DNA of 64,000 nt. Origin: Microcoleus sp. Lineage in GTDB: Bacteria > Cyanobacteriota > Cyanobacteriia > Cyanobacteriales > Microcoleaceae. Both the position numbers and the translations under genes were made by a program. The stretch is from contig JAYFMW010000020.1 of NCBI GenBank assembly GCA_042408215.1, positions 480,001 through 544,000 on the forward strand, read 5' to 3'. Shown here piece by piece: positions 46,755 through 64,000 of this stretch (position 1 is its first letter; each line of letters opens with the position of its first letter). The notes beneath the pieces were generated by a model. That model was given only the letters and a program-made list of their open reading frames with translations, made no database searches and was not told the origin of the DNA.

Positions 46755-49079
46755 ATGACATCACAAGCAGTTGCTCTCCAAGTTATTCAGCAAGCTATCT
46801 GCGCTTTAGCCGATTGGGCTAATAACGCGAAATTACCCGATGGATGTCAGTTTTCAACAGAACATCCAGCCGTGACTAAAGCGAAAGAATTATTGTCATG
46901 GCACAATCCGAACATAAGTTACTTGGCGTTGTTATTTGATGCTGTCAAATTGTCAGAGGGTAACGAACGAAATCAGCCCCACTATTGTCCGGCGAACGCG
47001 ATCGAAGCTAAGGATGATTGTTATCCGTCTATTCCTTATCCATTGACAGAACCTCCAGATTTAGAAGAGTATAAAAAAAATGTCAAACAAGAGTTAGAAA
47101 ATCTTCGGAAACAAGACTGGGAAAACTTATCACTGCTAACTCTGATTTTAGAGAAGTATGGTTCTTGTCTCAGCTTTTGCGAGCGGGATATTGCTTTGAT
47201 AGATATGGCGCGATCGACTGCTGCGGTAGCATCTGCTTTGGTTTACAATCCTGATGCAAACGAGATCGGTTTAATTGCCGGCGATTTATCGGGAATTCAA
47301 AAGTTTATTTACACCATTGCTTCTGACGGTGCGCTGAAATCTCTCCGCGCTAGAAGTTTTTATCTGGAATTAGTCACAGAAGAAATTGTTCAGCAGCTTT
47401 TAGAAGAGTTAAAGTTACCTCGTACTAATGTTATTTATGCGGGTGGCGGTAACTTATATTTGTTAGCCGCTGCTACTCAAGACACAAAACTTGTTTTAAA
47501 CAAAGTTCAGAGAGAATTCAACAAATGGTTACTAGGAAACTTTCAGGGCAAAGTCTTTTTGGCTCTAGACTACACTACATTTCCAGTTAAAGATGTCAAT
47601 CAAAGAGAATTTGCTAATCACTGGTCAACAGTTACGAAAAAAATTACTCCCCAGAAATCTCGGAAGTTTGCTGAGGAGATAAACTATTTTACCCGCCGGC
47701 TTCGTAGCTATGACAAGTGCCAAGTTTGTCATCGAGATGATGTGAAGAGTTTGGAAAATTTAAATACAGATCAACCTGATTCGGTACAGGCTTGTTCAAC
47801 TTGTCGCCGGATGTTTCGCTTGGGTGGTAAACTATTTAAAGTTGAGGCTATTGTGCGACAGAAAAAAAGGCATCCACCTCAACAAAAAGTCTCAAATGCT
47901 TTTAGGATTTCATTTCCTAAAGCTTACTATTACCTTCTAGCTGAGCGGGGACAGATAGATGAAGTTAAGGGGGAGAAAAATGTTTTTTTTATCAACAATT
48001 GGAATCTCCAAAAATATCGAGATGCTGAAACTAAAAATATAGTTCCGTTACTTTTAGGAAATTATGGTCAGCGCAGCCAAGAAGAATCGGGTTTCATCCG
48101 AGCAGGTGAAATGGCAGAGAAAGCCAAGGAAGTAGGAGCGATTCCTAGAGTTGGTTACTTGCGGATGGATGTAGACAGACTGGGTAAAATTTTTGCTAAG
48201 GGTTTGGGTGAAAATCAAACCTTGCCGAGATTGGCTGGACTTTCTCGCCAAATGAGTTACTTCTTTAAAGTTTATCTCAACAGTTTGGCAAAAAACCGTC
48301 TAGCTAATCTCGCCGATAGTGCTATTGTTTTAAACAACGAGGTACGACAGAATTTATTATTTATTTATGCAGGAGGTGACGATTTATTTGTCAGCGGTGC
48401 TTGGAATGAAATTGTTGATTTTGCTTTTGATGTTTATCAAAGTTTTCGCGCTTATACAGGCAATAACCCAGATATTACTTTGTCGGGTGGCATTAGTATC
48501 GAAAAAGCAAAGTTTCCACTATATCAAGCTGCCAAGTTAGCAGAGAAAGCTGAGGAGGATGCTAAAGATAATGGTCGCGACAGTTTCGGATTATTTGATG
48601 ACAAAGTGTTCAAGTGGAGCCAGTGGTTAGGAGCAAGAGATATTAAACTAGCAGATATCGAAGAGATTGACTCTAAAACTCAAGAATATTTGGGGACAGA
48701 GGGAACGCTGAGTTTATTTGGTGTCTGGCCTTTTGTCGAAAAGTTCCTAGAGCAATTGGAGGAAAGTTCCTCTCGCAGTTTTGTACGGAATCTTTTACTA
48801 ACATCTCAAATGCAAGAGCAAATGATTGAGGAGATACAAACTAAAAGGAGAAAAGTTGATTATGAAAATGAGGAGCAAGATATTCAATATTATTTGCACC
48901 TACCTCAAATAGCTTACACCATAGCGCGATTGCCTGAAGAGGTTCGGAAAAGTGATGAATTTAAACCTGTACGAAAATCTCTGATGAGTCCGTACAATGC
49001 ACCTTATTTCGGAGCGATCGCAACTTGGATTGAACTACTCAACCGCGCTAAAAACGATAACGATGACAAATCTACCTAA
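46755..49079 (+). CDS. cas10: Type III-A Cas10/Csm1
   Basis: GDLSGIQKFIY, LRARSF, Zn finger CQVC...CSTC, MDVDRLG, YAGGDD. Confidence 0.95.
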   Translation: MTSQAVALQVIQQAICALADWANNAKLPDGCQFSTEHPAVTKAKELLSWHNPNISYLALLFDAVKLSEGNERNQPHYCPANAIEAKDDCYPSIPYPLTEPPDLEEYKKNVKQELENLRKQDWENLSLLTLILEKYGSCLSFCERDIALIDMARSTAAVASALVYNPDANEIGLIAGDLSGIQKFIYTIASDGALKSLRARSFYLELVTEEIVQQLLEELKLPRTNVIYAGGGNLYLLAAATQDTKLVLNKVQREFNKWLLGNFQGKVFLALDYTTFPVKDVNQREFANHWSTVTKKITPQKSRKFAEEINYFTRRLRSYDKCQVCHRDDVKSLENLNTDQPDSVQACSTCRRMFRLGGKLFKVEAIVRQKKRHPPQQKVSNAFRISFPKAYYYLLAERGQIDEVKGEKNVFFINNWNLQKYRDAETKNIVPLLLGNYGQRSQEESGFIRAGEMAEKAKEVGAIPRVGYLRMDVDRLGKIFAKGLGENQTLPRLAGLSRQMSYFFKVYLNSLAKNRLANLADSAIVLNNEVRQNLLFIYAGGDDLFVSGAWNEIVDFAFDVYQSFRAYTGNNPDITLSGGISIEKAKFPLYQAAKLAEKAEEDAKDNGRDSFGLFDDKVFKWSQWLGARDIKLADIEEIDSKTQEYLGTEGTLSLFGVWPFVEKFLEQLEESSSRSFVRNLLLTSQMQEQMIEEIQTKRRKVDYENEEQDIQYYLHLPQIAYTIARLPEEVRKSDEFKPVRKSLMSPYNAPYFGAIATWIELLNRAKNDNDDKST

Positions 49080-49530
49080 TAAAATTATCAAAAGTCAAAT
49101 GAGTTTGACAGCAGACCAACAAATGATCCAAACTATCCGCAGTTTAAAGGATGGGCTTTTGCGAAATTACGAAATTCGCCAATTGGTTAAGGAGGCAGAG
49201 TTACTAGGTACATATCTCAAGGAGCAAGGATTAAAAACCAACCAAATTCGCAAGTTTTTGGAGGCTGTTAAACGTCTGAAAGTCAAACTTGCTCAAGATA
49301 AAGAAGAGAGTTTTTCTGTCATTGAGGATGAGCTGTTTTTACTAAAACCAAAGTTAGCTTATGCTGCGGTTCGGCAACAAGATCGTGGCAGCAATCCTGT
49401 TAAGCCGCTGAGTGACGTGATTTCAGAAGCGATCGACAAAGTTGAAGACTCACCAGATTTCTATCGCCTGGTTCAATTAATTGAATCTATCATTGCTTAC
49501 CATAAAGCTGCCGGAGGAAAAGATAATTAA
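49063..49530 (+). CDS. csm2: Csm2 small subunit (start taken at the ATG overlapping the cas10 end)
   Basis: TNQIRKF, LKPKLAYA, ESIIAYHK. Confidence 0.92.
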   Translation: MTNLPNKIIKSQMSLTADQQMIQTIRSLKDGLLRNYEIRQLVKEAELLGTYLKEQGLKTNQIRKFLEAVKRLKVKLAQDKEESFSVIEDELFLLKPKLAYAAVRQQDRGSNPVKPLSDVISEAIDKVEDSPDFYRLVQLIESIIAYHKAAGGKDN

Positions 49531-49532
49531 TC

Positions 49533-50528
49533 ATGCTACAACACAAACAACTACTTGGTAAATTTCGACTGGAAAGCACCTTGCTATTAGAGACAGGAAT
49601 GCACATTGGTGGTGGTGGAGAAAAACTCGACATTGGCGGTCTAGATAAAGCCGTTGTCCGTGACCCTATTACCCAGTTTCCATACCTTCCCGGTTCTTCA
49701 ATTAAAGGCAAATTGCGCTCTATTTTGGAGCGGTTTCACAATAAACCTTTGAATCGAGCTGGAGGGAGCGGTACTTATCGTTATGAAAGCGACGATCTGG
49801 TGGATGGATACAGTGAAATTAACGGAATGCAGATTTGTTATCAAGGTGCGCTGACTTGTCCTATTAGTCGGTTGTTTGGCTCTACTGGCGGCTCTAATTT
49901 TTGGGTTGAAACTTCACAGGCACAAGAAGCGGAAGGTTTGGAGCGAGTAAAAAGCAAGGATATTTTTGTTACTCGCACTATAAATGGTGTGGAACATAGC
50001 CAGGTGAAAAAAGGTCGCAATTCTCCGGCACGGTTAATTGTACGCGATTGTCATCTCATTCCTGAATCTGCTGAGCAACTTAAGCGGGTAGACACCGGAC
50101 TTTACATGACTGAGTGGAAATTTGAGAACGGTATCGATCGCATAACGGCTGCTGCTAATCCCCGCCAAGTTGAACGAGTTCCGAGAGGTGCAAAATTCAA
50201 GTTTGAGTTAGTTTATACTGTCGAAGCTGATGGCGATCGCGCAGATGTCACTCAAGCTGTAGAGGATTTGCAGAATATCGCGATCGGGCTTTCCCTCCTC
50301 GAAGATGATGCTTTGGGTGGACATGGATCGCGGGGTTACGGCCAAGTCCGGTTTGAAAAATTCAAGTGTTTCTGGCGCGACTTGGAGCAATATCGACAGA
50401 TAACAGAAGATGGTGTTGACTTTCGAGCTCCCATCCTTGAAGCAGATGATACATCAGCACTCCTCAAAAACTTTGGCACGTTGAGTCGCAGCATTCAACA
50501 AAAGAATTTGACAGGAGAAACAAAATGA
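49533..50528 (+). CDS. csm3: Csm3 RAMP (Cas7 group)
   Basis: TGMHIGGG, IGGLD, PGSSIKGKLRS, KFENGIDR, LGGHGSRGYG. Confidence 0.95.
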   Translation: MLQHKQLLGKFRLESTLLLETGMHIGGGGEKLDIGGLDKAVVRDPITQFPYLPGSSIKGKLRSILERFHNKPLNRAGGSGTYRYESDDLVDGYSEINGMQICYQGALTCPISRLFGSTGGSNFWVETSQAQEAEGLERVKSKDIFVTRTINGVEHSQVKKGRNSPARLIVRDCHLIPESAEQLKRVDTGLYMTEWKFENGIDRITAAANPRQVERVPRGAKFKFELVYTVEADGDRADVTQAVEDLQNIAIGLSLLEDDALGGHGSRGYGQVRFEKFKCFWRDLEQYRQITEDGVDFRAPILEADDTSALLKNFGTLSRSIQQKNLTGETK

Positions 50529-51592
50529 GCATCTGGAAACTTGTGCGACTGCAATTTTTAGGGACTGCACACTTCGGAGAATCAGGTATTGGGATTGAGG
50601 AAACTAGCGAACGAGTGCGATCGGATACGCTATTTAGTGCGTTGATTACGGTGTATGCTAGGATGTTTGGAACTCAGGCAGTTGCCGAATTGTTGCAACT
50701 ATTTTGCGTGAGGGAAAACCAGCCACCATTTTGCATCAGTTCTACTTTTATATATCAGCAAATAGGAGATAACATCACGTACTATTTGCCTAAACCGCTC
50801 CGATTTCCCTGCAATTACCCCGATGACGATTTGATTTTTTTTAAGACTTACAAGAAGAAACTCAATTACTTGCCTTTGGAAATTTGGCAGCGCTGGTATC
50901 AGGGCGAGGGGTTTGCAGATAGCGACGAACTCGGTACTTATACTAATGAGGGCAAAAGTCAGGGCAACTTAAATCAAGCGAGAGCATTTGCTTACGGAAC
51001 CTGTTACAAAAAGAGACCACTTCCCAAAGTGGCAATAGACAGAGTAACTAGAGGAACAAACTTTTATAACACAGGCATCGTACAATTTCAACAAGATAGC
51101 CAAAGCCATTCAGGCTTATATTTTCTCATCCACTTTCCCTCCGTCAATAAAACGTTGGAACATCAGCTAAAAGCTGTCTTGAAGTGGCTGGGAGATGAAG
51201 GTTTAGGTGGTGAACGTTCTAGCGGAACCGGACAGTTTAAAGCTAAGTGGGATTCTTTATCTCCGACTTGGCAACAAGTAGTAGATTTTAAGGACAACAG
51301 TTACTACACTCTTTTGAGTTTGTTTTGGACAAATGACGAACAAAAACTGAACGAGGCGATCGCAGATGAAAAGGCAAGTTATGAAATTATAGAAAGAGGC
51401 GGTTGGGTATCTTCTTCTCCTTCTGGGTATCAGTTGCGTCGCAAGTCAATTAGAATGTTTGCTGAAGGTTCGGTTTTTTCCTCCGAACCGATCGGCAAAC
51501 TAGCTGATGTCACTCCGTTAGGATTTACGAATCACCCAATTTATCGCAGCGGCATTAGTTTGAGTCTTCCTATCAAAGTCAAGAGTGAATAA
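50525..51592 (+). CDS. csm4: Csm4 RAMP (Cas5 group)
   Basis: HFG, SDTLFSA, GLGGERSSGTG, EGSVF. Confidence 0.93.
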   Translation: MSIWKLVRLQFLGTAHFGESGIGIEETSERVRSDTLFSALITVYARMFGTQAVAELLQLFCVRENQPPFCISSTFIYQQIGDNITYYLPKPLRFPCNYPDDDLIFFKTYKKKLNYLPLEIWQRWYQGEGFADSDELGTYTNEGKSQGNLNQARAFAYGTCYKKRPLPKVAIDRVTRGTNFYNTGIVQFQQDSQSHSGLYFLIHFPSVNKTLEHQLKAVLKWLGDEGLGGERSSGTGQFKAKWDSLSPTWQQVVDFKDNSYYTLLSLFWTNDEQKLNEAIADEKASYEIIERGGWVSSSPSGYQLRRKSIRMFAEGSVFSSEPIGKLADVTPLGFTNHPIYRSGISLSLPIKVKSE

Positions 51593-51597
51593 ATATC

Positions 51598-52881
51598 ATG
51601 ACTGCTGCTTCTCACCTTGCCATCAAAAAACCTGAAGCTTCCGAATCCAAGCTAATTCAGCTAACAAGTCCTATTTTACATATCGGTTCAGAAGTCTCCC
51701 GGTTGAATCCTTTTGAATACGTCCAGACATCTAAAAGGGTTTATCTCCCCGATCGAGAAGCTTTAGCTAAAGCCTTAAACCAAAAAGGAAAGTTACAGGA
51801 GTATATTCGCCGAATTGAAGATCGAGAAGAAATTACCTCGCTGCTACAATATGCTTTTGGTGACGACTGGCAAACTGAGAAATTTGATAATGAACTCATT
51901 TTTCCTGAAATTGCCGTCAGTCATAAATGGACTGAAAATCCGGTGACAGATTTGCGTCCGATGATTCGCAACGGCATGGGACAATTGTATATTCCCGGCT
52001 CGTCAATTAAGGGGGCAATTAGAACTGCGATCGCCTACCACCTCCTCAAACATGAAAACAAATATCAACTCCCAGAATCGGCCAGCCTTAGTGTCATAGA
52101 AATCAAATTACGAGAAAAACTTGGTAGAGGCGAACTCGCAAATAAACAAAAACAAAAAAAATTAGATGATGAATTATTCATGGATAGTTTATTCACTGAT
52201 TTTGCTCTCTCCTATCAAGGCAAATCTGTCAAAAGCAAAACCGGGCCAAACACGGACTTCATGCGAGCCATTAAAGTCACCGATTCTCAGCCTTTACTAG
52301 TATTTAAAAAAGTCACTAAGCAAGGAAAAAATGTATTTTTTAACTTGCCTATAGTTGCTGAAGTCATTGTCTCCAGCCGCTTCCCAGATTATAAAGCCAA
52401 ATATCGCGCTTCCATTTATGCGGAAATGGTTCGCAACGTGCAGACTAAATTCACCCTCACTCTGGATACGGAAATGCTGCAATGGTTCACTCACAATGAA
52501 GGGATGCAAATACCGTTTAAAAATCTGGATGAACTGCTGAAAATTTGTCAAGAGTTCGCTCAAGAGCAATGGGATGCTGAACATGATTATTGGGAGGATA
52601 TCGAAAATAATCGCTCTCAAGATAAAGACTTAAATTTCAGCTATATCCGCGAATTATACGAGCCAACTGGATGCCCCTATAACTTAAGAGTTGGTTGGGC
52701 AAGCGGAATGTTGGGAACTACGGTTAGTTTATGTCTTGATGATAAATTGGTAGCCGAAATCCGCGATACTTGCGGAATCAAAGCACCGGGTTTTGAAGCA
52801 CCAAAATCGCGGCGGACTGTTGTAGCTGCTGATGGCAATATCAAATATGTACCTGGATGGGTAAAGTTTAAGCCATGCTAA
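51598..52881 (+). CDS. csm5: Csm5 RAMP
   Basis: LHIGS, YIPGSSIKGAIRTA, LRVGWASG, PGWV. Confidence 0.92.
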   Translation: MTAASHLAIKKPEASESKLIQLTSPILHIGSEVSRLNPFEYVQTSKRVYLPDREALAKALNQKGKLQEYIRRIEDREEITSLLQYAFGDDWQTEKFDNELIFPEIAVSHKWTENPVTDLRPMIRNGMGQLYIPGSSIKGAIRTAIAYHLLKHENKYQLPESASLSVIEIKLREKLGRGELANKQKQKKLDDELFMDSLFTDFALSYQGKSVKSKTGPNTDFMRAIKVTDSQPLLVFKKVTKQGKNVFFNLPIVAEVIVSSRFPDYKAKYRASIYAEMVRNVQTKFTLTLDTEMLQWFTHNEGMQIPFKNLDELLKICQEFAQEQWDAEHDYWEDIENNRSQDKDLNFSYIRELYEPTGCPYNLRVGWASGMLGTTVSLCLDDKLVAEIRDTCGIKAPGFEAPKSRRTVVAADGNIKYVPGWVKFKPC

Positions 52882-53639
52882 TTCGTTCTACCTGGACATT
52901 AACTGTATCCGAACCCGCTGTTTTTCCGCGCGCTTACCATTTAGAATTGGTGAAAGAGTTGCATCGGCGATTAGAATTAGAAGTAGGAACTGAGACTGTA
53001 CCTTCTGTAAGTTTTTCAGGAATTCAGGGTTTTTACCAAGTTTCCCAAGATTTTCTTTCGTTTACACCAGATGAGTTTTATACCTTGTCTTTGTCTGGCT
53101 TGCAGGAGAATGCTGCAAAAGCGATCGCCTCCCTAAATCTCTCACCATCTCTCGAATTTCTCGGTGCTAAATTTGATATAATTAATCGAGAAGATGAAAT
53201 CACCAGCTACGAACAACTTTACACGGAACTTGTAGCCAATGAACCAGAACCAGTCCGCCGCTTCGATCTTAAATTTACTACTCCGACTGCTTTCGCCCAA
53301 GGTTCCACGCACTTAGCTTTACCCGTTGTAAATCTCATGTTTCGCAGTTGGTTAGAACGGTGGAATCACTTTGCCCCTGTTTATTTGGGGAGTGATGAAT
53401 TAATCGCTTATTTGAATCAATCTGTTTTATTAAAATACCACAAGATTCAAACGCGATCGCACCAATTACCTAAAGGATATGTAAACGGGTTTGTTGGCCA
53501 AGTAACGCTGCAAATTCCTTACCGCACTGATTCCTTGCTGGCTAATGTAGCGAATTTACTGATTCAATACAGTCAGTATTCAGGTACGGGAATTAAAACC
53601 CGTCTTGGAATGGGTCAAACAATTGTCAAACTAGATTAA
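52875..53639 (+). CDS. cas6: Cas6 endoribonuclease
   Basis: FTTPTAF, C-terminal G-rich loop SGTGIKTRLGMGQ. Confidence 0.93.
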   Translation: MLIRSTWTLTVSEPAVFPRAYHLELVKELHRRLELEVGTETVPSVSFSGIQGFYQVSQDFLSFTPDEFYTLSLSGLQENAAKAIASLNLSPSLEFLGAKFDIINREDEITSYEQLYTELVANEPEPVRRFDLKFTTPTAFAQGSTHLALPVVNLMFRSWLERWNHFAPVYLGSDELIAYLNQSVLLKYHKIQTRSHQLPKGYVNGFVGQVTLQIPYRTDSLLANVANLLIQYSQYSGTGIKTRLGMGQTIVKLD

Positions 53640-53650
53640 GGAGATTACCA

Positions 53651-54904
53651 ATGAGTCAAATAAAAATCATTACATTTTTAGGTAAATATCCAAGAGAAAC
53701 TATTTACAGCCATAGCGATCGCACCTACAAGGGTCAACTATTTGCTGAAGCACTGCACCAGTTTTGTGAATATGACACTATGTTAGTGTGCGTCACAGAA
53801 GAAGCAAAAGCAACTACTTGGCCTCTATTAGAAGCACTAGGAGATGCGCGGATCAAGCCGATTGATATCCCAACTGGTAGAACTACGGAGGAAATGTGGG
53901 AAACTTTTAAAATCATCACTCAATATGTTGATGAAGACGATCGCGTAATTTTTGATATTACTCACGGACTGCGATCGCTCCCTTTTCTCGTCTTCTTATT
54001 CGCTGCTTACCTCAAAGCGGCCAAAAACGTAACAATTGCAGCTATTTACTATGGTGCTCCTGAGTTAAGCGACAGCAAAAATAACGTACCAGCGCCTGTC
54101 ATTGACCTATCTGAATTTGTGTCAATGATTGATTGGATTACAGCCACTAATCAATTTGTCAAAATAGGAGACGGACGAGAACTAGCTAAGTTACTTAAAA
54201 GTGCTATACCATCAAATTTTGAACTAAGCGAAATTCCATCTAGCAGACAAATTAGAGACAATCTTAAGAACTCGGTTGAAGCAATTGAGAATATCTCTCT
54301 AGCTTTAAGTGTAACTAGACCTATTGAGACGATGCAATCGGCTACTAAGTTAGAAGAAATTCTCCAAAAAGCTGCACAAAATTTTGCAGATCGAGCTAAA
54401 CCGTTTTCACTTTTATCAGACAAGGTTGTTCAAGAGTACGGACAATTTGCTCTCCAAAATCCTACAGATGAAGCAGCATTGAGCCAGAATTTGCGGCTAC
54501 AATTGCAGATGATTAAATGGTACATTGACCGAGATCAATTAGTACAAGCAATTACTTTGGCTCGTGAATGGTTAGTTTCTATCTTAGCGCTGCGATTTGG
54601 TGAACCCATGTTCGATCATTCAAGAGGTCGCAAGTATGTAGAAGCTGCTCTAAATAATGCAGTTGAACAGAATAGACCTCATCCTCGCCCTCCTCTTGAT
54701 AGCCGTTGCAATGCAAAGTTTGCAGCTTTGCCAGAAGCAGATGAACTTGCTAGTGTCTGGAGTCTAATGGCAGAGTTGCGTAATGATATTGCTCATTGTG
54801 GCATGAATAATCAACCTCAAACTGCTCGCAGGCTTAAGGAAAAAGTTTTATCACTATCTCTTAAATTAGAGACAATTAGCAAGGAACTATTGCCAGATAA
54901 ATAG
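53651..54904 (+). CDS. csx1: CARF (DxTHG) + HEPN ribonuclease, Csx1/TM1812-like
   Basis: DITHGLRSLP motif; HEPN RxxxxH motif RNDIAH. Confidence 0.85.
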   Translation: MSQIKIITFLGKYPRETIYSHSDRTYKGQLFAEALHQFCEYDTMLVCVTEEAKATTWPLLEALGDARIKPIDIPTGRTTEEMWETFKIITQYVDEDDRVIFDITHGLRSLPFLVFLFAAYLKAAKNVTIAAIYYGAPELSDSKNNVPAPVIDLSEFVSMIDWITATNQFVKIGDGRELAKLLKSAIPSNFELSEIPSSRQIRDNLKNSVEAIENISLALSVTRPIETMQSATKLEEILQKAAQNFADRAKPFSLLSDKVVQEYGQFALQNPTDEAALSQNLRLQLQMIKWYIDRDQLVQAITLAREWLVSILALRFGEPMFDHSRGRKYVEAALNNAVEQNRPHPRPPLDSRCNAKFAALPEADELASVWSLMAELRNDIAHCGMNNQPQTARRLKEKVLSLSLKLETISKELLPDK

Positions 54905-55018: not shown

Positions 55019-55645
55019 ATGCCTTTCAGCACTTACAAAACAGTCGGTTCAGTCCTCAAAGAATTTAAAATCACCTACACCGAATCTGATTTTATAGTAG
55101 AAACAAAGTTTAATATCTCTGACTATTTTCGAGAAGATTTGGAATTTACAATGCGAGAAGGAGTGGTTGATAATTCTGAATTTGCAATTTGTGAAAATTT
55201 GATTTATCCAGTGATCGAAGAAGTTTGGAAGCGCTATTACAGGGGGTTTGTTTTGTGGAGCCATCAATCTCTCACCTATGACCAATATCTTTCTGGGTTT
55301 CCTGAATATATTTTGGCGAAACGTTCTGTATTAGGAAAAGTTGTTTTTGAACAACCTTACTTTCTGTTAGTTGAAGCGAAACAAGATAACTTTTAAAATG
55401 GATGGGCGCAGTGTTTGGCTGAAATGATTGCCGCACAGCGACTGAATGAAAACTCAGAGCAAGATGTATTTGGAATTGTATCGAATGGTGGAGTATGGCA
55501 GTTTGGCAAGCTGAAGTTAAATATTTTTACTAAAAACAAACAGTCTTACTTGATTGATGATCTGAATCGACTATTTGCTGCGATTAATTACGTGTTTCAA
55601 CAGTGCGAATTGCTGCTGGATGCTGAAATGCGCGATCGCAATTAA
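55019..55645 (+). pseudogene. PD-(D/E)xK-like hypothetical protein with an in-frame TAA at 55394
   Basis: VEAKQDNF*NGWAQCLAEMIAAQ...FGIVSNGGVWQFGKL reads in one frame. Confidence 0.75.
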
Positions 55646-59702: not shown

Positions 59703-60224
59703 TTAATCATTTGCTATTTCATCCTCACCTTGACTTTTCACCTCTGAAGGAAACGATAACTTAATATTAATATCTATAGAAATTGTTGCATTATTATTTT
59801 CATTAAAAAAATGTATATCAGTTATATGTATCTTAGCGTCTTTTGGTAAAGACCTACCGACAGTAGAATCACCAGATAAATCTACTTTATAACCAGCTTT
59901 ATCCAACCATTGATGAACATTGCGCCAATTACCAACATCATCACTAGGAGTTTCAGGAATACCCTTAAAATATTGATAGAGAGTTTTGCACATATAAACC
60001 TCAGCCCCCCTAGCACTTTTCGACAATTGACGCGCAATATCACTAGGGCTGCAATTGCACAAAAGACCACGCAAATATAATTTTTCTGTATCAGTGAGAC
60101 CTTGGCGGGCGTTGGGGAAAATACGACGTTTAGCTTCGGTAAATAGTTCATAGATGCGATTCAAGTCCCAAGTTTGGGCAGCTTCGGCAAATAGATCCTT
60201 TCTAGTAGGTTTTCGTGTAACCAT
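59703..60224 (-). CDS. Helix-turn-helix protein, probable regulator
   Basis: LTDTEKLYLRGLLCNCSPSDIARQL...LYQYF...NWR resembles the cyanobacterial N-terminal HTH found on NACHT/vWA-MoxR-associated proteins. Confidence 0.65.
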   Translation of the reverse strand: MVTRKPTRKDLFAEAAQTWDLNRIYELFTEAKRRIFPNARQGLTDTEKLYLRGLLCNCSPSDIARQLSKSARGAEVYMCKTLYQYFKGIPETPSDDVGNWRNVHQWLDKAGYKVDLSGDSTVGRSLPKDAKIHITDIHFFNENNNATISIDINIKLSFPSEVKSQGEDEIAND

Positions 60225-60481
60225 TTTTAGTATTGGTATAAATTGCTAACGTAATGGTAGCATAAATTGATAACGTTCAATAGTTGCGGATTATTTTTTT
60301 TTGTTTTAAGGTAGATATCACATGGGTCTTTCATGCTTCTGGTCATATTTTTTTGTGACAGTTTCTAGTCCTTTGGGAAAAGGCTAATGTAATGATAGCG
60401 TAATTTGGTAGTCTTTGTTAGCTTTAAGTTCGTTATCAACAAAACAATCCTAGCTTATCCAACAGTTGAATCATAAAAAGT

Positions 60482-61069
60482 ATGCGAATTATATTTTTAG
60501 GCCCGAATGGCGCAGGCAAAGGCACTCAAGCTGCTATTGTGGCTCAGGACTTCGGGATTCATCACATCTCAACGGGCGAACTACTGCGCCAGGAGCGAAA
60601 AGACAAAACTGACAGAGGCCAAAAAGCACAATCTTATATAGATAAAGGGTCATTAGTCCCTGATAGCATTGTGCTAGATATTGTAAAAGAACAATTGACT
60701 AAAAAAGAAGCAACACCAGGTTGGATATTAGACGGATTTCCTCGGAACGTCGCTCAAGTTGGAGCTTTAGACAAATTATTAAAGGATTTAGGTCAGCCAA
60801 GTTGTGATTGTGTTATCAATTTTGATGTACCAGACTCAGTTTTAGTTCAGCGACTGAGAAAGAGGGCCATCAAGGAAAATCGTACAGATGATACTCCAGA
60901 AGTTATTCGGCGGCGCATCCAAATTTTTCAGGAAGAAACTGCACCTTTAATCAACTTATATAGTGAGTGGTTGTTGCTAGAAACCATCAACGGGTTTATG
61001 TCTAAAGAGGCAGTTACATCAGCAATTAAAGAAGTTTTATCAGAAATAAAAAATCCCACTAAGTCCTAA
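60482..61069 (+). CDS. adk: Adenylate kinase, short-LID type
   Basis: GPNGAGKGTQA, HISTGELLR, LDGFPRN, RTDD. Confidence 0.92.
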   Translation: MRIIFLGPNGAGKGTQAAIVAQDFGIHHISTGELLRQERKDKTDRGQKAQSYIDKGSLVPDSIVLDIVKEQLTKKEATPGWILDGFPRNVAQVGALDKLLKDLGQPSCDCVINFDVPDSVLVQRLRKRAIKENRTDDTPEVIRRRIQIFQEETAPLINLYSEWLLLETINGFMSKEAVTSAIKEVLSEIKNPTKS

Positions 61070-61190
61070 TTTAGTCCTGGACGCATACCTAACGTAATTC
61101 TGTCATTGTTCGCTGTGCGTCGCAATCTCAAACCCATGTTTTTCGTACTGCGTAAGTCCTTTAATTGATAAATCAAGGAGTAGACAAGTT

Positions 61191-62618
61191 ATGCCTTTTA
61201 ATCAAGGTGATAGAAATATCATTCGCGGTGGCCCAGGAAGTAGCAGTGAGCTTAATTATGATATTTACGCTGAATTACTTTGTAATATGGCGATCGAGGC
61301 TACACAACCACTTCTGAGACAAAATAAAGATCATAAAGAAGGCGCTTTTACCATTGGTATTTTTGGTTCTTGGGGGAGCGGCAAAACCAGCCTCATGGCA
61401 CGAATGAGAAGTGACTTTGAAGAATTAGGAACTCGTTCTGCAAAAAAATATAAAACGGTTTGGTTTAATGCTTGGAAAGATGACGATAAACTGGACATTA
61501 AAAATGCTCTTATTCAGACTATTCTTAGTCAAATATGTGAAGACACAAGTATTAATGCAGAAGAGCGAAAAAATATTACAAAAGCGGCTTTAACCTATTC
61601 AGCTTGTGCTTTGAAATTAGCTGGTGTTTTAGCAAAAGGATATGTTAATGCTCAAACAGCAGGGATGATTGATATACAAGCCATAGCTAAACAATTTGAA
61701 ATGTTGTCTAATCCCGATCAAAACTCTCATCTCATTAATCCTTATCAATTTATCAACAACTTTGAAAATGTCTTTAAAAATGCAGTGCAAAGTTATGTGG
61801 GTAACGATGGTCGATTGATGATATTTATTGATGATTTGGATCGTTGCTTACCAGAAAATGCTTTATCTGTCCTAGAATGCTTGAAATTACATTTAGATCA
61901 GTCTAACTGTATTTTTGTCATTGGAATTGATAAAAGAATTATTGAGCAAGCGGTGGGACAAAGATACCCGAAAGAGCTTGGTATTACTGGTAGGGAATAT
62001 ATAGAAAAAATCATTAACCTGAACTTTTTTCTATCTGATAAAGATCGAGAAGAAGTTAAAAATAGACTGCTTCAAGGTTCTTTAACAGCCCAGTATAGTA
62101 ATGATGAAAAAATATGGGGGATGATTTCTAAAGCGACTAATTCAAATATCCGTAAAATGCAGCAATTTATTACGGCTTTTTATATGATTCAAGAAATTGT
62201 TAAAAAACACAACTCTACGCTTGCTGATAAGCTCACACAACGACAACTAACAAGCGATAGTCGAAGCATAATTGAAAAGAAGAAAATAGACTGGAATACT
62301 GATGACAAGTATAAATTTTGCAAAATAATTTTACTCCAGTTAAATTTTCCTGAGTTTTACGATCGTTTAGCTAACAATCATCAACTTATGGATCAAATAT
62401 ACACTGCTTGGCAAAATGAAGGTGGAACAGATGATAGCATAGATATTGGCATAGATAATTTAATCAAGTCTACGAACAAACATCCAATATTTGCACAATT
62501 CTTAGAAAATCGAAATTTAATAGACTTTATAGTTACTTACTACAAGGATGGTAAAATCACAAATAGTGATGACTGGAAAGCGATTCAAAAATTATCTCAA
62601 TCAGTAACTTATATGTAA
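61191..62618 (+). CDS. KAP family P-loop NTPase
   Basis: IGIFGSWGSGKTS, WFNAW, IFIDDLDRC, YIEKII, NIRKMQQF. Confidence 0.92.
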   Translation: MPFNQGDRNIIRGGPGSSSELNYDIYAELLCNMAIEATQPLLRQNKDHKEGAFTIGIFGSWGSGKTSLMARMRSDFEELGTRSAKKYKTVWFNAWKDDDKLDIKNALIQTILSQICEDTSINAEERKNITKAALTYSACALKLAGVLAKGYVNAQTAGMIDIQAIAKQFEMLSNPDQNSHLINPYQFINNFENVFKNAVQSYVGNDGRLMIFIDDLDRCLPENALSVLECLKLHLDQSNCIFVIGIDKRIIEQAVGQRYPKELGITGREYIEKIINLNFFLSDKDREEVKNRLLQGSLTAQYSNDEKIWGMISKATNSNIRKMQQFITAFYMIQEIVKKHNSTLADKLTQRQLTSDSRSIIEKKKIDWNTDDKYKFCKIILLQLNFPEFYDRLANNHQLMDQIYTAWQNEGGTDDSIDIGIDNLIKSTNKHPIFAQFLENRNLIDFIVTYYKDGKITNSDDWKAIQKLSQSVTYM

Positions 62619-62631
62619 TCGTTGAAAAATC

Positions 62632-63564
62632 ATGGAAAATAGCGATGCAGTTAGTATAGAAGACACAAAAGTTATAACCAATGACTTTTGTATCTTGAAA
62701 GATACAGATACAGTAGCAGAAGCATTAGCTTTAGTTACTGTGCAAAATGCGAGTGAAATTGTTATTGTAGATGAGGATAAAAAATTTGCGGGTATCCTAA
62801 CTGACTTATCAATTTTACGATCGCTACCACCGCCAGTTTTAGATGTACCTGTTAAGTTTAGAATTAAAAGCCCTAAACTTCGCAAACAATTAAATGAGGA
62901 ATTAATTAATAGTTTAAAAAAGCCGATAATCGAGGTATTTAAACTAGAAAGAATCAAGCCTTATACTTCTAAAAATCAGAGGCTAATTTATGCGATGGAT
63001 AAATTAGTGGAATCCTATAAATCAACTTCAGCGATCGGAGTTTTACCTGTTATCAATGAGGACGAAACAGTTTATGGCGTAGCTTCTCCCGAAAGCATCT
63101 TAAGTCACATTAAATCTAATCAAAAATTTTGTCAATTGAAAGCCGAACGTTTTTTAGCGTTACCGGAAGTGAGTGGTATGGAACAACCATATACTCTACT
63201 ACCATCAGATACCCTAGCTCAAGCCAGATTTGCGATGAAATATTTGCCGATAGAGCATATAACTATCTGCGATCGAGATGGCAATTTGCTAGGAATGGTT
63301 GATAAAAAGCAGGTGACAACACTGACTCATCCCATGTATTTTAGTTTGATGGGTATATCTTTATCGGAAATAATGAAACCTGTAACTAAATTATGTTTGG
63401 TTGAGAAAATTCAAACATTGCAAGAGTGTATTAATGCTTACTTAAATAGGGGATTTAAGGAAGTAGTTATTGTTGAACAATTGCTAGGAAAAATTTACCC
63501 GAAAATGGTAGTAACGCCGATTGATATTTTACAATTCCGCGTACAAGTTTACCGTCAAAATTAA
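62632..63564 (+). CDS. Tandem CBS-domain protein (probably two CBS pairs)
   Basis: DTVAEAL...IVIVDEDKKFAGILTD; LPVINEDETVYGV; DTLAQA...DRDGNLLGMVD. Confidence 0.8.
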   Translation: MENSDAVSIEDTKVITNDFCILKDTDTVAEALALVTVQNASEIVIVDEDKKFAGILTDLSILRSLPPPVLDVPVKFRIKSPKLRKQLNEELINSLKKPIIEVFKLERIKPYTSKNQRLIYAMDKLVESYKSTSAIGVLPVINEDETVYGVASPESILSHIKSNQKFCQLKAERFLALPEVSGMEQPYTLLPSDTLAQARFAMKYLPIEHITICDRDGNLLGMVDKKQVTTLTHPMYFSLMGISLSEIMKPVTKLCLVEKIQTLQECINAYLNRGFKEVVIVEQLLGKIYPKMVVTPIDILQFRVQVYRQN

Positions 63565-63586
63565 ACAACAATGGAGGATTTTAATT

Positions 63587-64000
63587 ATGTCTATTAATAA
63601 CCTAGGATCACTTTTTAATCAGGGGTTCCCTGAATTCCAAGAGAATAGACCATTATGGTGGTTACAGCCAACTGACACAGTGGACTATTTAGATGCTATG
63701 ATGGATGAATTTAAAATCAGGCACGTCCCAATTATTGAGCCTATCGATCCTAAAAGTGATGAACCAAGAGGGGAGCTAAAAACAATCATTAGTAAGACAG
63801 ACCTAGTGAAAATTTTAACTCCTCCCAACGAACTATATCCGCCAGAATTTCCTCTGACACCTCAACAAAAATTACAACTGCGAAAATTCAATCAAGAAAT
63901 TAGTGCAAAATGTCTTAATGAAATTGAGGATTTTGCAAAACTTATGACGATACCTGTCAAGACTCTTTCTCTAAGAAATAGTAGAGTTGGAGATGTTTTT
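63587..64000 (+). CDS. Second CBS-domain protein (partial, runs off right edge)
   Basis: GGAGG RBS; MSINNLG...LQPTDTVDYLDAMMDEFKIRHVPII...IISKTDLVK open to the window end. Confidence 0.75.
   Translation, partial: MSINNLGSLFNQGFPEFQENRPLWWLQPTDTVDYLDAMMDEFKIRHVPIIEPIDPKSDEPRGELKTIISKTDLVKILTPPNELYPPEFPLTPQQKLQLRKFNQEISAKCLNEIEDFAKLMTIPVKTLSLRNSRVGDVF

Follow-up and report, generated by a model that had tools for sequence, protein, structure and literature searches.

An adenylate kinase–KAP NTPase–CBS cassette of Microcoleus and its relation to four-CBS proteins coupled to immune effectors

The cassette and its gene products

We examined the end of a 64,000-nt window of a Microcoleus sp. genome (contig JAYFMW010000020.1), where an adenylate kinase gene (adk), a gene for a KAP-family NTPase (KAP) and two genes for proteins with CBS motifs (CBS1 and CBS2) face away from a gene for a helix-turn-helix (HTH) protein. 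This cassette is real, mobile and undescribed, and it provides an entry point to a wider family of four-CBS (4xCBS) sensor proteins. Coordinates follow the numbering of the window; positions past its end are window-equivalent and were read on the same contig.

59703..60224, minus strand: HTH-like regulator, 173 aa, from the open reading frame (ORF) call and its Atlas neighbours
60225..60481, no strand: divergent intergenic region of 257 bp, presumed promoters and operator
60482..61069, plus strand: adk, 195 aa, accessory short-LID adenylate kinase (Pfam ADK)
61191..62618, plus strand: KAP, 475 aa, soluble KAP-family P-loop NTPase
62632..63564, plus strand: CBS1, 310 aa, predicted four-CBS disc with degenerate adenosyl sites
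63587 (ATG)..64630 (window-equivalent; the window holds it up to 64000), plus strand: CBS2, 347 aa, predicted four-CBS disc

The ORFs sit where the preliminary description of this DNA had placed them, with four co-oriented genes, a divergent HTH gene and gaps of 13 bp between KAP and CBS1 and 22 bp between CBS1 and CBS2. The operon does run past the window edge, as had been said: the CBS2 stop lies 630 bp beyond it, followed by a tandem repeat and then the convergent rpsD. The operon comprises the four genes and nothing more before rpsD. The Pfam scores were all over their cut-offs (ADK, PF00406, 166.6 bits against 26.8; KAP_NTPase, PF07693, 133.7 against a gathering cut-off of 20; CBS, 56.8). 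At 35.3%, the GC content of the cassette lies below the genome median of 45.1%, and 0.11% of 7233 equal-sized windows are as low. The HIP1 sequence (GCGATCGC) is missing between 59277 and 67165, a 7.9-kb gap, and gaps this long make up 40 of the 5067 HIP1 gaps in the genome.

The preliminary description had taken adk for an extra copy, and so it proved. The cassette copy is the third of three adk genes in the genome, and another (L002) adjoins a secY-like ORF, which we take to be secY. The P-loop, NMP-binding and LID motifs of the cassette copy are intact. It lacks the secY neighbourhood and the genus-wide presence of a housekeeping adk: orthologues of at least 92% identity were found in only 6 of 36 other genus genomes, and close orthologues occurred solely with the cassette. 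Phylogenetic analysis split 17 cassette adks from 19 others (support 94/80), placing the cassette copies in a dedicated clade, accessory rather than housekeeping.

KAP has intact Walker A (GSWGSGKT, residues 59-66) and Walker B (IFIDDLDRC, 211-219) motifs, both conserved across the KAP alignment. Membrane helix prediction was negative, a sequence search of solved structures found no relative, and the C-terminal ~140 aa belong to no known family, matching unnamed clusters only. The PADLOC matches of KAP covered the NTPase domain only: PDC-S20 at 124.8 bits (34-372 of 464; the model is given no cut-off), QatA at 100.2 and PifA at 90.2 (36-272 of 720, thus not full-length). PDC-S20 models probably catch many soluble KAPs. 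The QatA equivalog score of 116.6 is far below the cut-off of 600, no qatB, qatC or qatD was found in the operon, and PADLOC matched none of the other four proteins. KAP shares the KAP domain and intact Walker motifs with PifA and QatA and is soluble like PifA, but it is shorter than both models. It also lacks the membrane helices of Tmn, a KAP-related protein of the YobI family, and, unlike all three, it precedes two 4xCBS genes wherever the locus was seen whole. According to PMC13001434, KAP-type defence by PifA involves depolarisation and nucleotide leakage, while Tmn raises ATP turnover and activates ATP-depletion-sensing systems.

CBS1 and CBS2 carry four CBS motifs each, and AlphaFold2 modelled both as four-CBS discs, with pLDDT of 83.5 for CBS1 (the best of five, the others at 50-69) and 89.1 for CBS2. 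A profile comparison of the two gave an HH probability of 99.9 over 289 columns, identifying them as paralogues. Among solved structures, the folds nearest to the models are those of MJ1225, AMPK gamma/Snf4, SSO3205 and Sri/Dri, with 9-19% identity. CBS2 aligned with MJ1225 at Z 21.3 (rmsd 4.7, 263 aligned), with AMPK gamma at Z 19.6 and with Sri at Z 19.4; the top Foldseek match of CBS1 was Sri (9znf chain 4). The profile match to 9znf chain 5 (E 2.6e-7) was weaker than that to MJ1225.

The family signature consists of PP after motif 1, H(P) after motif 3 and SYxD in motifs 2 and 4, and CBS2 carries SxxD/SYxD/SYxD aspartates in motifs 1, 2 and 4. These motif aspartates are presumably the ribose-binding residues of the adenosyl sites. 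In the CBS2 alignment of 26 sequences, which takes in four solo members, the ligand-site Asp of motifs 1 to 4 is found in 24, 19 (plus 5 Asn), none and 26, respectively; in the CBS1 alignment the counts are 2/22, 4/22, 0/22 and 8/22. Based on these residues, CBS2 is likely the adenylate sensor and CBS1, with its ligand-site aspartates largely lost, likely an adaptor. This refines the earlier view of the module, in that CBS1 and CBS2 are not equivalent and adk is missing from two of 23 loci (see below).

The predicted CBS1-CBS2 complex scored 0.77 against 0.00 for the best control, the mark used for this score being reached by 116 of 157 solved pairs and 2 of 215 mismatched pairs. Contacts agreed by at least 93% between runs, with partner pLDDT of at least 82, and set the motif-3 face of CBS1 against the motif-1 face of CBS2. 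The two proteins are thus predicted to bind each other as a heterodimer. Most CBS1 homologues carry an N-terminal extension of ~50 aa, which is not essential because the present lineage has deleted it and L037 has lost its start codon. We rejected the N-terminal helix as a membrane-binding effector given this deletion and the fact that it was amphipathic beyond shuffles in only 6 of 18 proteins. P0075, a hybrid of 425 aa, starts as CBS1 and ends as CBS2, as if it came from a deletion between the paralogues or from misassembly.

The HTH protein likely controls the operon. It has no Pfam match and lies in the Atlas beside cyanobacterial HTH clusters (0.94-0.95) and HTH_VMAP-M9 (0.90), suggesting that it is related to cyanobacterial VMAP-type HTH proteins. 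The promoter scan of the divergent intergenic region gave 26 against 20.8 ± 4.0, which is not above chance, and the terminator scan stayed at chance level. Orthologues of at least 97% identity were detected in 8 of 79 genus genomes, always adjoining the cassette or its adk end. A divergent HTH-type gene is usual beside the cassette, with interchangeable families in different lineages, and the slot is filled by other genes in L037, L041, L049, L052, L073 and L078. The HTH family has at least five further copies in the genome, including G000 C14:30664, C30:580022 and copies on C8, C5 and C26, and a 50-55% paralogue is present in most genus genomes.

Distribution, exchange and expression of the cassette

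The locus table comprised 33 entries, namely the own locus, L033 (KAP without CBS genes), 8 loci cut by contig or fetch ends and 23 spanned whole. The gene order recurs in other genomes: adk-KAP-CBS1-CBS2 was found in 21 of these 23 non-self loci, with KAP-CBS1-CBS2 lacking adk in the other two (L032 and L073). The 23 loci are not independent, as L046 is almost the same as L038, and L031 as L078. Identities among the spanned loci range from 27 to 98%, the lowest being 40% for KAP, 33% for CBS1 and 27% for CBS2, and L040, L041, L047 and L057 have a broken gene or an assembly error. The main subclades agree across the adk, KAP, CBS1 and CBS2 trees, whose deep order is unresolved; the four genes are one unit of inheritance.

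The CBS2 profile matched 14 of 79 genus genomes (11 KAP-type and 3 protease-type), 8 of the 401 genomes at order level and 4 of the 401 at phylum level, with five candidates scored per genome at the latter two levels. Named relatives belong to Microcoleus, Microcoleaceae and Planktothrix. A CBS1-type and a CBS2-type protein with adjacent accessions in a metagenome-assembled genome labelled Bacteroidia may reflect transfer or faulty binning. In four loci of one subclade, an Imm30-family gene comes after the cassette (L053:7486, L079:1773, L080:12636 and L081:3038). The 35% KAP of L033 (L033:3638-8830) instead stands behind two P-loop ATPases (nSTAND3-like and NACHT-like, both weak matches), a candidate for another defence operon.

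Compared with L038, L040, L035 and L036, synonymous divergence (dS) is 0.05-0.20 for HTH, adk, KAP and CBS1, against 0.42-0.58 for rpsD; for two Planktothrix records, dS of adk, KAP and CBS1 is 0.12-0.30. The lower dS of the cassette genes, compared with neighbouring rpsD, points to recent exchange. The low dS, together with the GC content and the HIP1 gap, substantiates the earlier suggestion that this AT-rich DNA was acquired, and these comparisons indicate a patchy, horizontally mobile cassette. No cassette relatives were found in viral contigs or on plasmids. We rejected rpsD as a functional partner, as it marks the insertion site only and other lineages hold the cassette elsewhere. The gap between CBS2 and rpsD holds a tandem array of a dispersed repeat with a 69-bp period and 3.4 copies (L001:8721-8966, window-equivalent ~64720-64965).

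The mean ratio of nonsynonymous to synonymous divergence (dN/dS) was 0.16 for adk, 0.22 for HTH, 0.33 for CBS1, 0.34 for KAP and 0.55 for CBS2, with rpsD at 0.05. Among loci with CBS1 proteins 88-95% identical, CBS2 identity spans 64-98% with visible shared blocks; CBS2 is a mosaic and the fastest-evolving gene of the cassette.

Contigs from RNA libraries of four studies, from relatives at 85-99% identity, together reach from adk to CBS2, and each of the junctions adk-KAP, KAP-CBS1 and CBS1-CBS2 is crossed by single contigs; HTH is mostly uncovered and thus uninformative. Co-transcription is only hinted at, because contigs cannot prove a transcript.

Four-CBS relatives and known systems

To place the CBS proteins, a hidden Markov model search was performed over 1.84 billion representatives. 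Besides orthologues of CBS1 and CBS2 it returned longer proteins, and 52 of the 150 listed matches were domain-scanned. Among these 52, nine had TIR_2 (one below cut-off), two had CHAT with TRADD-like_N, one had a STAND/TPR region (below cut-offs) and one had LexA. Seven further matches and the L154 protein have an N-terminal domain that can be aligned to TIRs. A glutamate that we assume to be catalytic is kept in 7 of 8 aligned TIRs of 4xCBS proteins. P0187 may fall outside the family given its low CBS2-profile score.

P0094, P0098, P0100, P0101, P0116, P0126, P0149, P0171, P0187: TIR-4xCBS proteins of a single chain; the glutamate of the TIR domain is kept in most
P0089, P0103, P0125, P0102: CHAT-TRADD-N-4xCBS, STAND-TPR-4xCBS and 4xCBS-LexA fusions
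L082:9060-11602, L083:8675-11220, L076:11356-13700, L154:8071-11022: Trypco1-trypsin-4xCBS operons

In G016, G737, G020 and G792 (the last from another order), genes for Trypco1 (Pepco) and a trypsin-like protease are followed by a 4xCBS gene. The G016 genes were assigned by their likeness to those of G737, and a premature stop interrupts the CBS gene of G016. The three proteases of these operons whose sequences were inspected carry the triad motifs. In L154, the CBS protein has an N-terminus that is TIR-like and degenerate, and it overlaps the stop of the protease. The operons of G016, G737 and G020 have a divergent HTH-type gene of the same kind as that beside the Planktothrix cassettes, and adk is absent from the Trypco1-trypsin versions. 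We consider Trypco1-trypsin-4xCBS a candidate defence system in its own right. Pepco-protease pairs are described in PMC12642450 as experimentally tested death modules with many swappable sensors.

A careful tree of 38 rows separated CBS1, CBS2 and the protease/STAND- and TIR-coupled proteins from 14 other CBS proteins (100/98) and made sisters of CBS1 and CBS2 (82/88); it leaves out 55 of the 93 rows of a quick tree, and its outgroup consists of matches to our own profile. Against the CBS2 profile, effector-coupled members had a median of 138 bits and generic CBS proteins 33. These comparisons make the family link between CBS2 and the effector-coupled proteins firm, and the placement of CBS1 less so. 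A word search for longer fusions among 8000 candidates returned none, which is weak evidence. From the range of partners, we infer that the 4xCBS family acts as a swappable immune sensor.

No named system fits the cassette, in agreement with the preliminary description: PADLOC, NCBIfam and PHROGs returned KAP-domain and generic matches only. In the literature search, which covered main texts, mostly of open-access papers, KAP with CBS, TIR-4xCBS and Trypco-4xCBS were undescribed, and DS-11 was the one CBS defence protein that turned up; supplementary tables may nevertheless list the fusions. The term "CBS" is absent from the main texts of PMC12642450, PMC7159879 and PMC8195603. CBS-HEPN fusions are in print (PMC3710099 and PMC13092281), as are ParB-CBS fusions (PMC12704722), the latter unrelated to the cassette.

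DS-11, a CBS-HEPN protein from DefensePredictor, is the one precedent for defence gated by CBS motifs: its CBS module controls the output by way of an adenine ligand yet to be named (PMC13092281). It is, however, a single protein with a HEPN RNase, whereas the cassette has no HEPN match and spreads eight CBS motifs over two proteins; the DS-11 model (NF053863) gave 15.2 bits against a cut-off of 260. With the Pepco/Trypco1 modules and the NTP-dependent conflict systems of multicellular bacteria, the link is the sister 4xCBS proteins beside or fused to them and a shared divergent VMAP-type HTH, but the cassette operon has no protease or Pepco. The archaeal ribosome hibernation factors Sri, Dri and HibA are four-CBS proteins that pair up and are likewise encoded in tandem; the cassette differs in being bacterial, not basic overall and accompanied by KAP and adk.

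The predicted four-CBS disc with Asp at three of four sites recalls AMPK gamma, Snf4 and MJ1225, and an adenylate kinase as AMP amplifier would match AMPK logic. The cassette proteins are only 11-19% identical to these, the operon has no kinase or scaffold subunits, and the partner is a KAP NTPase. The degenerate site also differs, being motif 3 in CBS2 and site 2 in AMPK gamma.

Possible functions and neighbouring loci

The cassette probably has some defence role, because its CBS relatives are fused to or lie beside known immune enzymes. The preliminary description had proposed such a role, and the coupling of 4xCBS proteins to TIR, CHAT, STAND and Trypco1-trypsin strengthens it. As for the mechanism, we tentatively favour, at somewhat less than an even chance, a switch to abortive infection or dormancy that is gated by adenylates: the CBS pair would govern KAP as a consumer of ATP, and Adk would amplify AMP. 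Infection would shift the adenylate pool, upon which CBS2 would exchange ATP for AMP or ADP, and the CBS2-CBS1 pair would change shape and free the KAP NTPase. The freed KAP would consume ATP and Adk would turn the resulting ADP into AMP, closing a positive feedback loop, until the cell enters dormancy or dies and the filament is spared. We infer the ligand (AMP/ADP versus ATP), the KAP-CBS contact, KAP as effector, the feedback and the phage trigger.

Several results weigh against this switch. Nothing in the cassette can be recognised as a toxic domain (no nuclease, protease, TIR or membrane domain), so that KAP is the effector by elimination only, and adk is dispensable in L032 and L073. The quick tree of 93 rows put CBS2 sister to the effector-coupled clade (94) and CBS1 apart, and the CBS1 and TIR profiles part the family from generic CBS proteins narrowly. 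The predicted CBS1-CBS2 interface is not more conserved than the rest (0.41 vs 0.43 and 0.38 vs 0.42), and the complex score may come from a resemblance to CBS pairs of solved structure, SriA-B for example. No dN/dS ratio reaches 1, therefore positive selection is not shown, and the rate of CBS2 could be due to relaxed constraint plus recombination. The RNA contigs give weak evidence that the genes are expressed in environmental samples for which no infection is known. Enrichment in defence islands, a check named in the preliminary description, was not found: PADLOC on 122 flanking proteins of 11 loci (no matched control set) showed no island-like clustering, and a caspase plus NACHT system occupied the rpsD slot in only one of 44 relatives.

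Three other explanations were weighed. The trigger of a defence system could be a phage protein or an unusual nucleotide (Ap4A, c-di-AMP or similar) acting at CBS2 or KAP, with Adk as a brake that buffers ADP and AMP against misfiring in day-night energy swings. The mosaic, fastest-evolving CBS2 is as expected for a phage-contacted surface, the loss of adk from two of 23 loci and its absence beside Trypco1-trypsin fit, and DS-11 is likewise without a known ligand; nonetheless, the three CBS2 ligand-site aspartates are strongly kept, the cassette has no nucleotide-synthesising enzyme and its dedicated adk clade co-evolved with it. We regard this trigger as unlikely. We hold it similarly improbable that the cassette is a non-defence, AMPK-like energy or stress regulator tuning a KAP-dependent process in mat-forming cyanobacteria (desiccation, darkness, cold). 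Such a regulator would need neither effector nor defence islands, would be built of adenylate-handling parts with folds nearest MJ1225 and AMPK-gamma/Snf4, and would be consistent with homologous RNA contigs in four environmental libraries. It would not be expected to show the patchy presence, recent transfer and broken copies (L040, L041, L047 and L057) seen here, a conserved metabolic neighbour is missing, and the nearest CBS2 relatives are coupled to proteases, TIR and STAND domains.

Finally, the CBS pair could itself be the effector, a bacterial analogue of archaeal Sri/Dri that would bind ribosomes in tandem and shut them down when infection or a loss of energy is signalled by KAP and Adk. 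According to PMC13454478, Sri proteins have four CBS motifs, are encoded in tandem and bind in pairs; they are among the best structural matches of both CBS proteins, and both have long inter-motif inserts. The identity is 9-17% only, however, level with AMPK-gamma and MJ1225, and most bacterial matches are placed outside the Sri clades in the same paper. Dri homologues are defined by basic loops (10.1101/2024.11.12.623245), whereas the net charge is at or below 0 in 19 of 21 CBS1 and 28 of 28 CBS2 homologues, counting whole-protein charge only. The relatives moreover act as C-terminal modules on enzymes, and we regard a ribosome-silencing pair as very unlikely.

Energy charge is a classic stress signal of eukaryotes, read through adenylate kinase and AMPK gamma. 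A broader, doubtful but conceivable extension of the adenylate-gated switch is an AMPK-like bacterial immune circuit, in which 4xCBS discs would read AMP/ADP:ATP, stack head-to-tail with the motif-3 face against the motif-1 face and switch on whichever effector is wired to them, the Adk cassette being its self-amplifying energy-collapse loop. The effectors would then include TIR NADases, CHAT and trypsin proteases with Pepco pores, and the KAP ATPase, and filamentous cyanobacteria would own a phage-agnostic alarm based on energy charge. Such an immune sensor would form a new class alongside SAVED, CARF and STING. The family supplies simple cases in which the ligand is directly identifiable (single-gene TIR-4xCBS and three-gene Trypco1-trypsin-4xCBS), and it would help in understanding how PifA, QatA and other soluble KAP NTPases are regulated, as well as phage control of Microcoleus mats and Planktothrix blooms.

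The flanking PADLOC matches were mostly short PDC-S03/S17-type, toxin-antitoxin-like or generic ATPase matches, besides one type I methylase and one NsnA-like protein. Of the 75 genus genomes that matched rpsD, 44 lacked the cassette there and had usable contigs; in these the slot after rpsD was read, and it was mostly occupied by a peroxidase/catalase-like pair or an MFS transporter. A defence hotspot at this slot was not supported (1/44; no flanking enrichment). The commonest occupant, e.g. at L035:943-5335, is a Tle1-like lipase domain, either in one protein with a haem peroxidase or split off from it, with a catalase-like gene behind. In G721, the slot (L126:2397-7855) holds a caspase, an EAD10-NACHT protein and a 641-aa protein of no named family.

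A type III-A CRISPR operon lies ~5 kb upstream of the cassette (46755-54904), with cas10 identified by Pfam; we take its other genes to be csm2-5, cas6 and a Csx1/TM1812-like gene. A link to the cassette was rejected, as the operon is missing there in other cassette loci and in L039, the latter marking it as a separate insertion. Two short ORFs of 125 and 76 aa at 55019-55645, between this operon and guaA, look like one split gene.

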